Below are positions 24,315-34,558 of a stretch of 64,000 nt of DNA, piece after piece. The position numbers were made by a program, and so were the translations under genes. Numbering within the stretch: position 1 is the stretch's first letter; the number at the start of each line of letters is the position of its first letter. The notes beneath the pieces are model-generated. The model had not been told where the DNA came from, made no database searches, and saw nothing but the letters and a program-made list of their open reading frames with translations. The stretch lies in the NCBI GenBank assembly GCA_947084935.1, contig CAMTUH010000010.1:4538-68537 (forward strand), read 5' to 3'. The stretch is from an uncultured Coxiellaceae bacterium. GTDB lineage: Bacteria; Pseudomonadota; Gammaproteobacteria; Coxiellales; Coxiellaceae.

Positions 24315-24347
24315 AGGATACACCCAGAACCTTAAGAAAATATTAAG
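24315..24347 (-). promoter_or_regulatory. PmrA-box promoter of icmW
   Basis: Minus strand reads CTTAATATT-TT-CTTAAGG-N9-TATCCT. The -10 ends 26 nt before the icmW ATG. Confidence 0.65.
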
Positions 24348-24431
24348 TAAATGTTAAAATTTCACGAATTCGTGCGGCTTTTAATTTCAAATTAATTTTA
24401 CTCACAAAAAAATCCTTTCTTTTAATTGATC

Positions 24432-28821: not shown

Positions 28822-29991
28822 TTACCGAGCATTCATCGATTGATATTTCGCCTGTGCGGATAAAATTTTATACGTGCGTTCTGAAATCAACCCGGCTTGG
28901 TATTTGTGTTCAACATCAACGTGCATGAGTTGCCCGTGTTCCTCGACGAGGCGACGCGTGACGGCCGTGACTTTGTCGGGGTCGGCTTCGAGCAACTGAT
29001 CGCGGATTTTTTCGTTGAACACCAAAAATTCTCTTAATGCCACGCGTCTGCCGTCGACCGATGGAACCAAACGCTGCCAGATCACCAAGCGCATCGTTTC
29101 AATAATGTCGATGGTGCGGCCGATGCGTTCTTCTTTCGGAAAACTGCCAACCAGTCGTCGAATCGTTTCTGCAACGCCGTTGCTGTGTAACGTAGTATAA
29201 ACCGGATGGCCGGTTAATGCAGCTTCTAACACGGCAGAAATAGTCTCGTTGTCGCGCGCTTCACCGACTAAAATTAAATGCGGTTTGCGGCGAAGCGCGT
29301 TTCGAACGCCTGCAGCAAACGAGGGTAAATGCCGCGGAATTTCCGATTGAGAAATCGTGGCGGTCGGTGTTTCGAGCGAATCGTACACGTATTCGATGGG
29401 CGCTTCGTAAGTGAGTATTTTGCGGTTGCTGTTCGGATCTTCTGCAAGCTCTTTTACCATCGCCGCGAGTAAAGTGCTTTTCCCTGAACCCGTGGCGCCC
29501 GTGACGTAAATCACGCCTTCTTGCGGTGCAATTGCATCGACAATCGCTTTTGGCAATTCTAATTTTGATAAAGAAGGCGGTTCTGCGGGAATGGTTCGAA
29601 TGGTAATTTGAATACCTTCCTGACCGTCCACGTGACAGCCGGTACCATTTACCCGGTGTCGAAACCGTTCATTGCGATTGGGGCGTACTTCGTAGTGCGT
29701 GTCTAAATCTACGCCGCGCATAATTTGCGTGGTGCCATTCGGTCCGTAAATCGCGTTGAGTAAGTCGCCGACTTCGGCATTAGATAATTCGCGTCGCGTG
29801 ATTTTTTGAATGCGCCCGTACACTTCGGCGATAATGGGCGATCCCGTTTGAATCGTGATATCCGATGCCCCTAATTGGTGGCAATACACGAGCAAATGAT
29901 CGATGTGCTTCGCTTCAAAGCGCGCAGGTTCCTTCGGATAAAAATCGTCGCTCAATGACTCAACGCTCCATTCGTCAGCACCGGCTTCCAT
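28822..29991 (-). CDS. dotB: Dot/Icm ATPase DotB (PilT/VirB11 family)
   Basis: Walker A GATGSGKST, Walker B-like LILVGEARD, His box TGHPVYTTLH. 389 aa. Confidence 0.9.
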   Translation of the reverse strand: MEAGADEWSVESLSDDFYPKEPARFEAKHIDHLLVYCHQLGASDITIQTGSPIIAEVYGRIQKITRRELSNAEVGDLLNAIYGPNGTTQIMRGVDLDTHYEVRPNRNERFRHRVNGTGCHVDGQEGIQITIRTIPAEPPSLSKLELPKAIVDAIAPQEGVIYVTGATGSGKSTLLAAMVKELAEDPNSNRKILTYEAPIEYVYDSLETPTATISQSEIPRHLPSFAAGVRNALRRKPHLILVGEARDNETISAVLEAALTGHPVYTTLHSNGVAETIRRLVGSFPKEERIGRTIDIIETMRLVIWQRLVPSVDGRRVALREFLVFNEKIRDQLLEADPDKVTAVTRRLVEEHGQLMHVDVEHKYQAGLISERTYKILSAQAKYQSMNAR

Positions 29992-30761
29992 TGATTACTG
30001 TTGGGTTGCAGAGCCGAAGCTGCGGTAATACGCATGATTTCATCGTTAATGCGAATTTGATCCGCATTTCCGGTAACGCCGAGATCGGCCTTCGAAACGA
30101 TCGGCGAAGTAATAATGCCTTCTGACAGTAATTTGCGGTATAAAATCATACCCAAATAATCGCGTTTTAATCGATTTAAATCCGCCTCAAAGATGTCGTT
30201 GGCTTGTTGAAGGCCGTCTTTCCAGCCACTTTGCAAATAGAAATTCCAGACTTGCGCTTCATCTTGATTTACTGGAAGCAGCGTATTATCGGGAACGTCG
30301 GGTTTTTTGAAATTCAGCCACAAATAATTACGCCACGTGGGAGGCGCGGTGACAAAACGAGCCGGGGCAACGATTTTGTAAGTTTTATCCGCCATGCGAA
30401 TGGTGTTACCGTCGTCTAAATTCAAATTACCGTTGGACTCAACGATGACGGGTGGCACGACATTGTGTTTTAACAATAATTGATTGAAATCGAAAACTTG
30501 ATCCATATACGTGGCTTGTTGTTTCAGGGCGCTGTTGATGTGTTCGGCGCGCCACGCTAAAGCGCCGCGAGCGCCGAGTGTGGTTGCCGTTTCACGCAGT
30601 GCTTGCATGCGAATGGGATTAATTAGACCGTTTCCCGTGGGCAATTGATTGATGTTGACGTAACCCAGTTCGGCCATTGGCGCCGATCCCGCGGAAGAAT
30701 TCGCGGCGCAACCCGTTGCTAAGCAAGCCGCGATCAGAATAATGCAAATGGTTTTTCCCAC
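29952..30761 (-). CDS. dotC: Dot/Icm outer-membrane lipoprotein DotC
   Basis: Lipobox LATGC. Collinear blocks with Legionella DotC (LGARGALAWRAEHIN, FNQLLLKHNVVPPV). Confidence 0.85.
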   Translation of the reverse strand: MGKTICIILIAACLATGCAANSSAGSAPMAELGYVNINQLPTGNGLINPIRMQALRETATTLGARGALAWRAEHINSALKQQATYMDQVFDFNQLLLKHNVVPPVIVESNGNLNLDDGNTIRMADKTYKIVAPARFVTAPPTWRNYLWLNFKKPDVPDNTLLPVNQDEAQVWNFYLQSGWKDGLQQANDIFEADLNRLKRDYLGMILYRKLLSEGIITSPIVSKADLGVTGNADQIRINDEIMRITAASALQPNSNQWKPVLTNGALSH

Positions 30762-30770
30762 GCTGACCTC

Positions 30771-31274
30771 TTAACTCGAGTAATAACGCAACTCAATCGT
30801 TCGAGTGGCCGGATAAAGCGTGATATTCGCTTTATTTTCCACTTGGAACGTAGCGTTACGCAAAATATCCGCAAGCGGAACATTGTTCGCATTAATGGCC
30901 ACGATTACCGGAATGGGCGGTTTGTCGCCCAGCACGCGTAAACGGTAATGGCTGGCTTGCGCGATTTTTTTTAGTAACGGCTCAATGGGTCCCGTCCAAT
31001 CCAGTGAAGTTTGTTGCGCCATGCCGATGAGATCGGGATTCAACGGCTCGGCTAATTTCGCTTTCGGATGAGTCGCCAATTGGATGGCGGCGATTTGTTG
31101 TAACGAATGGCCGACGTCCACGGAAGCTTCGGACAGCTGGGCCTGAGCGTTAACGTCGGTTGCTTGGACCGGAGCGCTGTCGGTGGTGATGTACGAATAG
31201 GTTAACTTTTTATGGACGGTACAGCCGGCGAGGATACAGAACAGGGGTATAAGCCACAAGTGTTTTATTTTCAT
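30771..31274 (-). CDS. dotD: Dot/Icm outer-membrane lipoprotein DotD
   Basis: Lipobox ILAGC, 167 aa, first gene of the dotD-dotC-dotB operon. Confidence 0.85.
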   Translation of the reverse strand: MKIKHLWLIPLFCILAGCTVHKKLTYSYITTDSAPVQATDVNAQAQLSEASVDVGHSLQQIAAIQLATHPKAKLAEPLNPDLIGMAQQTSLDWTGPIEPLLKKIAQASHYRLRVLGDKPPIPVIVAINANNVPLADILRNATFQVENKANITLYPATRTIELRYYSS

Positions 31275-31355
31275 AGTCTTGCGATCGCTTGGTATGATAA
31301 CGGTGTTGCAACAAGGTCCTACCCTTTAGTGACCGATCCGTGGCTTATGCGGATC

Positions 31356-31388
31356 ATTCTACGACAGTAACCTTAAGAGAATATTAAG
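31356..31388 (-). promoter_or_regulatory. PmrA-box promoter of dotD-dotC-dotB
   Basis: Minus strand reads CTTAATATT-CT-CTTAAGG-N9-TAGAAT. The -10 ends 81 nt upstream of the dotD ATG. Confidence 0.65.
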
Positions 31389-31436
31389 AAATATCCGTTT
31401 GCTTACCGCGGCACATTTACTTACACTTGCCTCTTT

Positions 31437-32438
31437 TTGATACAAACCGAAGTGAGAAGGCCTGTGGATGAGAAAGAAGTGGGTAATTATCTGCACGGAG
31501 TCGCTAGAGAAATCGCCAGGGAGAGGTCTTCATGGAATGGTCCGAAAGAACTAGGGTTAAAAAATAGAATAAGACAGGAGTTGCTTAATAAAGGGATTAC
31601 ATACCCGGATTTTAAGCGCATTAGTGAAATTCTGGGCGAGCGCTGCGGTAAAGTGGCGGCAAAAGCCGTGAAACGCCTGCGTAGTATATTGAGTTCTTTA
31701 GCCGAGGAGTTGAAGGCAAAAACTCAGAAACGGCCATTTGGCGACGAGGTATGGGAACCTGCTGAAGGTGGACCACCAGCAAAAAGACGAGCGTATGGTC
31801 CGCTGGCCATTACCACAGAGCTGTCAAACACCTTTTCGGAACATTCAGAGCATCTTAACGAGAAAGATGCTCAATTGGTGGATCAACTTTTGGGTGCGAT
31901 GGAGGAACTCAAAGATGGCACAAAGGTAATGGAGCTTCTTCCCTTCTTGGGTTCAGAAAATTCAGAAATAGGCTTGACCCCTGAGCAAGCCGGTACTTTA
32001 TTACAGAATTTAGATGATATGGGAAAAGACTTCGCGGATCCTGATAATATATTTCGCAATTGGCTCAGGACTTTTCTTCCGAAAGAAAACCCTATCTCTT
32101 CTCACACGGATTTACCACAACCTACTTTTGATATGCAGGGGGAGGTATTACCAACATTTGAATTTGCTTCGATGGAAGAGGTCGTCGCTTTTGCAAATGC
32201 ACTCTCAACTCCCGATAAAATAATCACTCGGGTGGACGAAAAACCCACCCGTGCTGCAACCACAGCTGCCACAACTACAGTTAACGTTGAAGTCAGAGCC
32301 CCGTCACCGGCGGGTTCGCTTTATGTTGGGGCCGGCAGCGTTTTTTCGTCTGGAAGTCGTTCTACTGTCAGTATTAGTTCGTGCGAAGAAAAAGGCCCAG
32401 AAACTCAAAAAGAAGGGTCTCGTAGTCCAAAACGTTAG
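31437..32438 (+). CDS. hypothetical protein, about 333 aa; candidate Dot/Icm substrate
   Basis: Long ORF with no TM segment or signal peptide. Acidic, low-complexity C-terminal third ending in a Ser/Glu-rich tail (..SSGSRSTVSISSCEEKGPETQKEGSRSPKR). Start codon uncertain (TTG at 31437 or internal GTGs). Confidence 0.5.
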   Translation: MIQTEVRRPVDEKEVGNYLHGVAREIARERSSWNGPKELGLKNRIRQELLNKGITYPDFKRISEILGERCGKVAAKAVKRLRSILSSLAEELKAKTQKRPFGDEVWEPAEGGPPAKRRAYGPLAITTELSNTFSEHSEHLNEKDAQLVDQLLGAMEELKDGTKVMELLPFLGSENSEIGLTPEQAGTLLQNLDDMGKDFADPDNIFRNWLRTFLPKENPISSHTDLPQPTFDMQGEVLPTFEFASMEEVVAFANALSTPDKIITRVDEKPTRAATTAATTTVNVEVRAPSPAGSLYVGAGSVFSSGSRSTVSISSCEEKGPETQKEGSRSPKR

Positions 32439-32472
32439 TCATACATCAACTCATCCAAAGATACCGTGTCTG
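32436..32472. repeat. 37-bp duplicate of the icmS 3' end (direct repeat of 33868..33904)
   Basis: TAGTCATACATCAACTCATCCAAAGA[T/C]ACCG[T/C]GTCT. The minus strand of this copy would encode ..TVSLDELMYD* versus the genuine icmS ..DAVSLDELMYD*. Confidence 0.8.
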
Positions 32473-32535
32473 GGCTATAGGCGGTTCAGCATTCCCGGCG
32501 AACCGCCCCCAGAGCCTATCTGGGTCAGCATTTAT

Positions 32536-32616
32536 AATAACGATTGGACGCACTTGCAATAACGATTGGACGCTACTAGAATAACGATTAGACGAGAACC
32601 TAATCACGATTGGACG
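32536..32616 (+). repeat. four direct repeats with an exact 22-bp period (AATAACGATTGGACG core)
   Basis: Cores start at 32536, 32558, 32580 and 32602 (variants AATAACGATTAGACG and AATCACGATTGGACG). The last ends 1 nt before the ATG at 32617. Confidence 0.8.
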
Positions 32617-33858
32617 ATGATGGCTGACACCCATTTTAAGCGCTATTCTGCTCGCAAGGTGCAAGAAGCCTTACAGGATACCCCGGTCGTATTCATTATG
32701 GGCCCTAGGCAAAGTGGCAAAACCACCTTAGTAAAGTCATTAATCACGAATCGCTGGGAATACATAACCTTGGATGATCAGGCTCAGTTGGCTATTGCGG
32801 CTGCTGATCCGGTGGGTTTTATAAAAAACTTGCCCGAAAAACCCATAGCCATTGATGAAATCCAGCGGTTGCCCCAAATGCTGCTGAGCATTAAACAAGT
32901 GGTTGATGAAAATCGCATGCCCGGACGATTTTTATTAACGGGATCTGCCAATGCGCTTGTGTTTCCCCAAGTAGCTGACTCCTTAGCGGGTAGGGTAGAG
33001 GCAATACATTTGAATACGCTTTCTGAATGTGAAATTCGAGGTGTGTCGCCCTCTTTTCTATCCATGCTACTGGCTTGCAAGACCCCTTCAGCAAGTGAAA
33101 TTAGGATTAGAGATTATTTGATTAAACGTCTCGTGACAGGCTGTTTCCCCGAGCCCTTACAAAGGAAAACCGAGCGCCGAATTAAAGCGTGGTACAGACA
33201 ATATATCAATTCTTTAATCCAAAAAGACATTAAAGAAATTGAGCAAATTGATCACCCTGAAAAGATGTTAAAATTACTTAAACTCACTGCCTTTTATTCA
33301 AGTAAGCTGGTTAATTTTTCAGAATTAGGAGATAAAGTAGGTTTAGATCGATTAACCACGAAAAAATACATTAATCTTCTTGAACAACTATTTTTATTGA
33401 AACAATTGCCGGCTTGGCATACCAATGAATATAAAAGATTAGTAAAAACGCCTAAATTACATTTAGTGGATACCGGTTTGATTTGTGCGGCCCGAGATAT
33501 CAACAGTGAGTTTCTGTTGCGCCATCCAAAAGAATTGGGCTTTTTATTGGAATCTTTCGTTTATAACGAATTGCAAAAACAAGCGGATTGGTTGGAAGAA
33601 GATATCTTTTTTTACCATTATCGCGATAAGGACAAAAAAGAGGTTGATATCATCATAGAGAATGCACGCGGAGATTGTTTTGCCATTGAGATAAAAGCAG
33701 CGGCTACGTTAAGTTCGAGTGATTTTTCGGGTCTTACACGTTTTCGAGAGATCGCTGGGAAGCGATTTAAGTTTGGTATACTGCTGTATGATGGAGATCA
33801 GACTACCGCGTTTAGTGACGACGTGTTTGCCGTACCTTTTGGTGCGCTGTGGTCGTAA
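32617..33858 (+). CDS. AAA+ ATPase of the AAA_14/DUF4143 family
   Basis: Walker A GPRQSGKTTL, Walker B PIAIDEIQ, sensor LLTGSA. The C-terminal half fits DUF4143 (KLHLVDTGL.., restriction-endonuclease-like tail EVDIIIE). ATG at 32617 preferred over the ORF-track TTG at 32566. Confidence 0.78.
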   Translation: MMADTHFKRYSARKVQEALQDTPVVFIMGPRQSGKTTLVKSLITNRWEYITLDDQAQLAIAAADPVGFIKNLPEKPIAIDEIQRLPQMLLSIKQVVDENRMPGRFLLTGSANALVFPQVADSLAGRVEAIHLNTLSECEIRGVSPSFLSMLLACKTPSASEIRIRDYLIKRLVTGCFPEPLQRKTERRIKAWYRQYINSLIQKDIKEIEQIDHPEKMLKLLKLTAFYSSKLVNFSELGDKVGLDRLTTKKYINLLEQLFLLKQLPAWHTNEYKRLVKTPKLHLVDTGLICAARDINSEFLLRHPKELGFLLESFVYNELQKQADWLEEDIFFYHYRDKDKKEVDIIIENARGDCFAIEIKAAATLSSSDFSGLTRFREIAGKRFKFGILLYDGDQTTAFSDDVFAVPFGALWS

Positions 33859-33866
33859 ATATCGGA

Positions 33867-34205
33867 CTAGTCATACATCAACTCATCCAAAGACACCGCG
33901 TCTTTGGATGAGCTGTTTTTGACGAGTTCATTGACGACGTCGAGAATACAAAATAACCGCAAAATATCCGGCGTGAATTGATCGAATTTCACTTTCACAC
34001 CAAGCAGAGATTTTTCAACGTCTTCGTAGGTGGCGCCTAATCCGTATCCTAAACACAGTGAAGCCAATTGATCCGCCCGCTTGGTAAGGCCAGGCAATAA
34101 TCCGGTTTCAGAAAACATTTCCGTGTGCGTGATGGGGCGGCCTTTTAAGGTAAAGGTAGCGCCGAGTTCTTTGGCCATGGCCGCGAGTTTTGTCCCGATA
34201 TCCAT
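33867..34205 (-). CDS. icmS: Dot/Icm chaperone/adaptor IcmS
   Basis: FSETGLLPGLTKRADQLASLCLGYGLGATYED ... LDELMYD* is near-collinear with Legionella IcmS. Confidence 0.92.
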   Translation of the reverse strand: MDIGTKLAAMAKELGATFTLKGRPITHTEMFSETGLLPGLTKRADQLASLCLGYGLGATYEDVEKSLLGVKVKFDQFTPDILRLFCILDVVNELVKNSSSKDAVSLDELMYD

Positions 34206-34463
34206 TTAGGTATCCCACCACGGGACGGCGATTTTACGCCGTCCCGCAATTAAGTTGCGAAACCACCGAAAAAAAACTTCAATGCTAAAACCATAGCGGT
34301 TAAGAATGGTGAAAAACAGCATGGCAACGACCGCCACGATGAGTGTCCACCAACGAATATGCAGTAAAAACAATAACATTGGGAATGCCGTTTTACCGTC
34401 CCAAATGAAAAATTTGACCGGCCGTGCCGAATCGCGCCAGTGTGCTTCGTTGAGTGGTTTCAT
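34206..34463 (-). CDS. icmT: Dot/Icm inner-membrane protein IcmT
   Basis: AHWRDSARP..F..D...AFP.LLFLLHI.WWT.IVAV..MLFFT.LNRYGF.....FRW.RN..AG.RK.A.PWW matches IcmT. Confidence 0.92.
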   Translation of the reverse strand: MKPLNEAHWRDSARPVKFFIWDGKTAFPMLLFLLHIRWWTLIVAVVAMLFFTILNRYGFSIEVFFRWFRNLIAGRRKIAVPWWDT

Positions 34464-34472
34464 AGAGGTTTA

Positions 34473-34505
34473 ATTCTATGGGCAAAACCTTAAGAAAGTA
34501 TTAAA
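34473..34505 (-). promoter_or_regulatory. PmrA-box promoter of icmT-icmS
   Basis: Minus strand reads TTTAATACT-TT-CTTAAGG-N9-TAGAAT. Only 9 nt separate the -10 from the icmT ATG. Confidence 0.6.
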
Positions 34506-34520
34506 TAATGCAATATTTAT

Positions 34521-34553
34521 GTTAATGTTTCCTTAAGCTTCGTATCGTAGAAT
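34521..34553 (+). promoter_or_regulatory. PmrA-box promoter of the icmQ operon
   Basis: GTTAATGTT-TC-CTTAAGC-N9-TAGAAT. The -10 ends 30 nt before the ATG at 34584. Confidence 0.6.
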
Positions 34554-34558
34554 GGGTT

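Follow-up and report, generated by a model that had tools for sequence, protein, structure and literature searches.

The four direct repeats that abut the start of an ATPase-nuclease gene in an uncultured Coxiellaceae bacterium form, by comparison of orthologous loci, a real and conserved predicted promoter-operator of this uncharacterised gene, locked in phase with its promoter. The array is a conserved putative control region carried by one lineage of the PDC-S01 family, and as a predicted promoter-operator travelling with the gene it is distinct from an origin, a partition site or coding sequence. We think it probable that the ATPase-nuclease binds the array with its own winged helix and so represses its own gene, for which the array would be a private operator. 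Coordinates are those of the window, the whole 64,000-nucleotide stretch of DNA that was analysed.

The repeat array

The array comprises four 15-nt cores:

32536 to 32550, plus strand: repeat 1 core, AATAACGATTGGACG, just 5′ of the predicted −35 hexamer
32558 to 32572, plus strand: repeat 2 core, identical to repeat 1, filling the interval between the predicted −35 and −10 hexamers
32580 to 32594, plus strand: repeat 3 core, G to A at 32590, reaching from the predicted −10 hexamer across the predicted transcription start at about 32589-32590
32602 to 32616, plus strand: repeat 4 core, A to C at 32605, in the predicted leader of about 30 nt and abutting the start codons

The period is exactly 22 bp and the total length 81 nt, with three 7-nt spacers that all differ (CACTTGC, CTACTAG and AGAACCT). 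The first-pass annotation had placed the four cores at 32536, 32558, 32580 and 32602 with this exact period, and had described two of them as identical, one as changed from G to A, one from A to C, and the spacers as variable; all of this held on direct re-reading, and Tandem Repeats Finder returned the same period (22, score 88). A repeat search likewise gave four copies spaced 22/22/22. The motif had been reported as absent elsewhere in the window, and the one further core match at up to 3 mismatches, at 29156 and with 3 mismatches, is at chance level. A genome search for the 15-mer had also been proposed there; a degenerate pattern covering all four core variants occurs only at the four array places in the whole 1.74-Mb genome, and no inverted or further copy of the motif was found on either strand of the window or genome. 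The array is far beyond chance. Its G+C content is 42%, against 45.6% for the window.

A structured RNA at the array was rejected, with no Rfam match at E ≤ 1 in 32200-32800. A REP-like or dispersed repeat was also rejected: apart from the copy of the icmS 3′ end described below, the genome has no second instance of the 100 nt left of the array.

Recurrence across orthologous loci

Metagenome contigs, relatives and 400 genomes of the class yielded 107 usable orthologous loci at 40-79% identity; a scan of the genome collection with the single protein gave only two loci. The first-pass annotation had suggested looking for similar arrays before DUF4143 ATPase genes, and phased arrays proved to be present in 99 of the 107. 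In the 130 nt upstream of the start codon, 74 loci had their best autocorrelation lag at 22 bp and 25 at 23 bp, while either lag was best in only 4/106 coding controls and 4/106 shuffled controls. At least two phased AWYNGNCD sites were found in 64/107 loci, with two to fourteen sites per locus. Cores ended in GACG (38), GCCG (13) or GTCG (6), and ATTGGACG, or something close to it, is the recurrent core ending among the orthologous loci. Cores are kept across the 40-79% orthologues and spacers are not. The last site lies 0-84 nt from the start codon, with clusters at 0-3 nt and about 15 nt. Individual loci illustrate the range:

L026, 79% identity: four sites at 22 bp, the last of them 3 nt from the ATG
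L013, 67% identity: five sites at 22 bp
Marinobacter plasmid and Ketobacter-type copies, 67-68% identity: three sites
L014, 43% identity: three ATCCATATTGGACG sites

The 15-mer of the Marinobacter plasmid copy is identical to that of the window. Hosts of the orthologues span many gammaproteobacterial families and metagenomes. Two upstream regions have unusual forms: at L066 a run of a 7-bp GGCAATC unit is fused to three normal sites, and at L059 the 200 nt that were inspected are taken up entirely by alternating sites at 23 bp, of which there are at least nine.

Promoter and start codon

A consensus scan predicted a sigma-70-type promoter, TTGCAA-17-TAGAAT, with 9/12 consensus matches:

32554 to 32559, plus strand: predicted −35 hexamer TTGCAA, shared between spacer 1 and the start of repeat 2
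32577 to 32582, plus strand: predicted −10 hexamer TAGAAT, shared between spacer 2 and the start of repeat 3

Such consensus promoters occur twice in 1.7 kb, against 3.6 expected from shuffles, and because matches of this kind are common, the match at a single locus is weak when taken alone. The predicted promoter is phase-locked to the repeats in most of the 64 orthologous loci, and the hexamer sequences recur in orthologues. Of the promoters scoring at least 8.5, 27 have a −35 hexamer that starts 2-3 nt ahead of a 16-nt site, and 27 have a −10 hexamer that starts 2 nt ahead of the next one. It is therefore the variable spacers that hold the RNA polymerase signals; the conserved cores lack any promoter-like sequence. 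A second group of loci has a 23-bp period, GCCG-type cores and TTGCAA-18-TACAAT, with the −10 hexamer only 13-14 nt before the ATG, a distance from which leaderless mRNAs are predicted.

The final base of the array, 32616, is directly followed by the ATG at 32617. Another ATG in the same frame comes at 32620, and this second codon lines up both with the start of the closest orthologue (MAGTHFK against MADTHFK) and with that of the 412-aa database product. The first-pass annotation had the array running up to the ATG at 32617 with no Shine-Dalgarno sequence. No Shine-Dalgarno sequence lies between array and start, and the abutment itself stands, with the gap amended to 0 or 3 nt depending on which ATG is used. 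Initiation at the TTG at 32566, which it had raised as a way of turning the repeats into coding sequence, is ruled out by the orthologues, whose start codons fall where the ATG at 32620 lies and whose upstream frames are closed or unrelated. The repeats are also not coding because the 22-bp period shifts the reading frame in each copy, and the 0-84 nt that separate orthologous arrays from their starts argue against a coding role as well.

The ATPase-nuclease

The gene downstream of the array and its predicted DNA-reading part are as follows:

32620 to 33858, plus strand: ATPase-nuclease gene, 412 aa from the second ATG, with AAA_14, lid, winged-helix and PD-(D/E)XK parts
33244 to 33471, plus strand: predicted winged-helix codons, residues 209-284, from model secondary structure and covariation

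The protein matches the PADLOC model PDLC04790 (candidate PDC-S01) at 5.9e-157 over residues 2-413 of 413, and the Pfam families AAA_14 (5.1e-25) and DUF4143 (2.9e-45), both above their cut-offs. By these matches the gene is a clear PDC-S01 member. Walker A (GPRQSGKTT), Walker B (DE), D343 and E357-x-K359 are all present and are invariant or nearly so in 58 orthologues, so that the ATPase and PD-(D/E)XK catalytic motifs are, as read from sequence, intact. DUF4143 has been classed as a PD-(D/E)XK nuclease fold (PMC3424549). In a 2026 survey PDC-S01 was the fourth most common defence-type system in prokaryotes; there it is an ATPase fused to a PD-(D/E)XK domain, treated as a one-gene system that was recognised from its location within defence islands and is still unvalidated in defence (PMC12988326).

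An AlphaFold model built on the 58 orthologues was confident (pLDDT 89.9, pTM 0.90). Its domains are an AAA+ core (about 1-160), a helical lid (164-204), a winged helix and a nuclease (296-412). The modelled winged helix (213-282), lying between the AAA+ module and the nuclease, has helices at 213-225, 233-239 and 244-256 and wing strands at 260-263 and 279-282; residues 244-256 are the predicted recognition helix. Foldseek neighbours of the model were STAND ATPases (Apaf-1, CED-4, plant NLRs and Avs4), ORC/Cdc6, clamp loaders and RuvB, with low TM-scores that are expected because the query is multi-domain. Cdn1 and Card1 were the top and 29th matches, probably through the nuclease domain. A search by sequence found no solved structure that is significantly related (best E 0.4). 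The corresponding winged helix of STAND ATPases is usually not a DNA binder, which counts against binding of the array by the protein itself.

The same 1.74-Mb genome has about 10 paralogues at 25-32% identity, each with its own different palindrome or repeat on promoter-like sequence just before the start; examples are those at C5:1593, C3:153584 (minus strand) and C3:131370. In three paralogues the upstream region ends with a −10-like hexamer and AGTC, followed 3-4 nt on by the ATG, an arrangement that suggests leaderless mRNAs. In place of a 22-bp array, these carry either long palindromes or words of the AATAGTC type at intervals of about 32 bp.

Linkage and covariation

We examined the genes flanking the array at 104 loci; the largest flanking family, a divergent Tn3-family transposase, is found in only 7. 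DNA similarity to the 79% orthologue L026 is limited to the array and gene (32564-33845). Since there is no widely shared flanking gene, similarity is confined to the cassette and the L026 cassette lies at a different site, the ATPase is the only gene co-inherited with the array.

The residues with the highest corrected mutual information with site bases are L245, R244, D243, Q262, P264, L282 and H212. D243, R244 and L245 are the start of the predicted recognition helix; Q262, P264 and L282 are in the wing. All seven pair with site bases 5-7, and 7 of the 10 top residues fall in the winged helix, which has 76 of the 412 residues (hypergeometric P ~4e-4). In the 60-79% clade, six triplets at residues 243-245 go with six kinds of 5′ half-site: DRL with TAACG, TATCG or TAGCA, DPG with TCTTG, DKD with TCTCT, NKD with TAGAA, SGK with TGCCG, and SHV with TTTCA. 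The T-x-K-K motif and the 3′ half (ATTGGACG, ATCAGACG, ATTAGACG or AATAGACG) vary little in the same clade. In a cruder test with relatedness controlled, covariation of site distance with divergence of the reading region was not significant (partial r 0.16); other 34-residue regions gave 0.03 ± 0.12, with a maximum of 0.28. The mutual-information signal could thus partly reflect shared ancestry, and the match of the winged helix to the repeat sites as their reader is suggestive.

The cassette and its Dot/Icm context

Pfam scans identify the surroundings as a Dot/Icm type IVB secretion locus. The features around the array and gene are:

28822 to 29991, minus strand: dotB (Pfam)
29952 to 30761, minus strand: dotC (Pfam)
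30771 to 31274, minus strand: dotD (Pfam)
31437 to 32438, plus strand: 333-aa open reading frame with no family match
32436 to 32471, plus strand: partial copy of the icmS 3′ end, 36 nt, 94% identical, the left cassette boundary
32472 to 33866, plus strand: minimal cassette, with a 64-nt leader region, the array, the gene and 8 nt (33859-33866) after the stop
32480 to 32507, within the cassette: leader-region hairpin
33867 to 34205, minus strand: icmS (Pfam)
33868 to 33903, plus-strand coordinates, icmS itself being on the minus strand: original icmS 3′ end, the right copy of the 36-nt repeat
34206 to 34463, minus strand: icmT-like open reading frame
34670 onward, plus strand: icmQ, dotM and dotL

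The two copies of the 36-nt repeat bracket the array and gene. In a genome of the same genus (G001) icmT, icmS and dotD are contiguous, an empty site: the icmS-dotD gap is 118 bp (L035, 1383-1500) and has a box matching 31354-31391 of the window. The empty site and matching box together mark the roughly 2.5 kb that separate the dotD promoter box from the icmS stop (31392-33866) as inserted DNA. This insert is made up of the 333-aa reading frame and then the ATPase cassette, with the 36-nt icmS copy between them, an order that suggests two successive insertions at one spot. The gene here is a selfish or defence-type cassette that the Dot/Icm locus acquired recently; the ATPase does not belong to the secretion machinery, and the repeats are no signal for it.

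At L026 (3549-5353) the cassette is in a syntenic Dot/Icm locus at another intergenic site, between a PP-binding gene, downstream of a dotA-like gene, and a BCCT-type transporter gene. DNA similarity between L026 and the window stops at the cassette edges. Flanking direct repeats were considered as a sign of a common insertion mechanism and dropped, as none were found around the L026 cassette. The 67-68% orthologues at L027-L033 and L044, from Marinobacter nauticus VT8 plasmid pMAQU02 and metagenome contigs, are divergent from an adjacent Tn3-family transposase and ahead of cargo (a mer operon or cation ATPase), so that transposons carry array and gene as their first passenger. Further along the Marinobacter element are a tyrosine recombinase and its divergent coiled-coil partner, a pair that we take to resemble the TnpS/TnpT module of Tn4651-type transposons.

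Two further kinds of element were noted in the window. A hairpin at 33882-33912, with a 13-bp stem and then a T-run, is terminator-like on the plus strand and lies inside the icmS 3′ coding end, and the right copy of the 36-nt repeat takes part in it. Its first arm is what is duplicated at 32447-32471, and the ATPase transcript would end at this hairpin. Direct repeats of the TTAAG type, with a period of 11 bp, occur at 31354-31394 (upstream of dotD), 34473-34554 (between icmT and icmQ) and 24332-24357. The dotD box is conserved in the same-genus relative, and we presume these repeats to be akin to the PmrA-type boxes of Dot/Icm promoters.

Proposed mechanism and alternatives

In the operator reading, repeat 1 would flank the promoter, repeat 2 fill the promoter spacer, repeat 3 cover the transcription start, and repeat 4 cover the short leader, free of a Shine-Dalgarno sequence, up to the start codon. 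The ATPase would bind these head-to-tail sites through its winged helix, with adjacent protomers aligned along one DNA face at intervals of two helical turns and presumably cooperative. Filled sites would exclude RNA polymerase, and a potentially dangerous nuclease would be kept at a low, self-limited level. The positions of the sites are our sole reason for preferring repression to activation. The first-pass annotation had proposed both a regulator-bound array and an iteron or partition site: the former is supported by the phased arrays at 99/107 loci, the promoter phase-lock and the predicted winged helix, and the latter fails, as set out below.

The ATPase might instead bind the array mainly as a docking or assembly platform that controls the nuclease, gene regulation being a by-product; AAA+ protomers would load head-to-tail, much as DnaA or Orc1/Cdc6 assemble along their arrayed boxes, for example storing the nuclease inactive on self DNA or licensing it. 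The modelled architecture, resembling ORC/Cdc6 and STAND ATPases, is in keeping with this, as are the intact catalytic motifs (Walker A, D343, E357-x-K359), the 5 to 14 sites of some orthologues, which are more than a simple operator needs, and a spacing that is strict even where sequence has diverged. We nevertheless judge it unlikely, since the promoter phase-lock and the fixed place at the gene's own start are most simply regulation and no second array is present elsewhere in the genome. Control of the gene by some other DNA-binding protein, encoded by the host or the element, draws on the weakness of the relatedness-controlled covariation and on the fact that self-binding by the ATPase is deduced. 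It is very unlikely: no neighbour gene is common to more than 7/104 loci, hosts are spread over many gammaproteobacterial families and metagenomes, and unlinked regulators would need to be a matching set because the core differs between lineages and between paralogues of the same genome. A broader reading makes the whole family readers of phased head-to-tail repeats that polymerise like an initiator and so switch their nuclease; the self array at the own promoter would restrain the protein, foreign 22-bp-phased arrays (e.g., plasmid iterons or phage origins) would be its targets, and array plus gene would be the minimal mobile unit. The last element is suggested by the two insertion sites in one type of Dot/Icm locus and by Tn3-family carriage; the reading as a whole we hold to be quite unlikely.

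That the array is a cis site of a mobile or replicating element (iterons, a centromere, a Tn3-family res site or transposase-binding end repeats) is highly improbable. The 22-bp period and 3-5 copies do recall the iterons of R6K, pPS10 and RK2 and the end sites of Tn7, the cassette here is an insertion, and at 7/104 loci the unit is divergent from a Tn3-family transposase, where a resolvase gene and res normally sit. Pfam, however, finds no Rep, ParA/ParB, transposase or recombinase gene in or beside the cassette, no inverted motif copy lies at its other end, 97/104 loci are without a transposase, and the orientation and phase of the array relative to the gene's promoter are kept across loci. 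The iteron-origin and partition-centromere readings of the first-pass annotation fall with these results: 32200-32800 has no match to the DnaA box TTWTNCACA, the highest AT content of any 40 nt near the array is 65%, so that there is no AT-rich unwinding region, and the site is chromosomal. The annotation had advised looking for replication or partition genes that could read the array; the ten genes around it include none, with no Rep family among their Pfam matches, and a ParA-type partner is lacking, as the ATPase is AAA_14 and not ParA/MinD and the cassette has no second small gene. Nor are array and gene an origin or partition unit of the inserted element, because the unit is found also in transposons and unrelated contexts. 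A res site was rejected on the 7/104 count and because the Marinobacter transposon has its own tyrosine recombinase and coiled-coil partner elsewhere; a transposon end was rejected for want of inverted repeats at the other end and of a nearby transposase. Finally, there might be no dedicated binder at all, the array being a tandemly duplicated promoter segment or coding sequence from the TTG at 32566. The −35 and −10 hexamers begin 23 bp apart, close to the period of the array, and the open frame does run upstream to 32566. We give this hardly any credence, given that the hexamers sit in non-conserved spacers and not in the conserved cores, that it is the cores and not the spacers that are kept among orthologues, and that orthologues start at the ATG 32620 position with each 22-bp copy out of frame.

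Significance

A conserved, promoter-phase-locked and lineage-specific array implies that the protein would be a sequence-specific DNA binder, and it supplies the likely binding sequence for each family member. EMSA, footprinting, reporter assays and specificity swaps can thus be designed directly. The regulatory design itself is unsurprising; the value is a first experimental handle on a very abundant family. Established here for the subfamily, at the level of sequence comparison, are the predicted promoter phase-lock, the core ending in ATTGGACG or a near variant, the predicted leaderless subgroup, the empty site and the boundaries of the putative minimal cassette.

Comparison with known systems

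The gene shares with the PDC-S01 family the full-length PDLC04790 match and the combination of ATPase and PD-(D/E)XK domain (PMC12988326; PMC3424549). The literature that we found on the family describes no repeat array, DNA-binding specificity or autoregulation.

DnaA boxes are found at the dnaA promoter, and archaeal Orc1/Cdc6 proteins have origin recognition boxes beside their own gene. As there, an AAA+ ATPase with a helix-turn-helix or winged helix is encoded beside arrayed candidate sites of its own; for DnaA and Orc1/Cdc6, binding at these sites also regulates the gene. The present case differs in having no unwinding element, about 10 paralogues per genome each with its own site, a winged helix between ATPase and nuclease instead of at the C-terminus, and sites that are strictly head-to-tail at 22-23 bp.

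R6K pi, pPS10 RepA and RK2 TrfA are winged-helix Rep initiators that read iterons and repress their own promoter. Three to seven direct repeats of about 22-bp period with a reader encoded next door, here a predicted one, are common to both. The protein here is not Rep_3 or RepA, however, the locus is chromosomal or transposon-borne, and there are no DnaA boxes or AT-rich region; iteron systems typically self-repress through an inverted repeat, whereas the predicted promoter here is overlaid by the direct repeats.

Autoregulatory operators of the Lrp family, such as the Ss-LrpB type, are phased arrays bound by cooperative repressors, and they too have several sites on one helix face overlapping the regulator's own promoter. 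Those regulators are small dedicated transcription factors, mostly dimers on palindromic sites, whereas the presumed regulator here is a 412-aa ATPase-nuclease on asymmetric head-to-tail sites.
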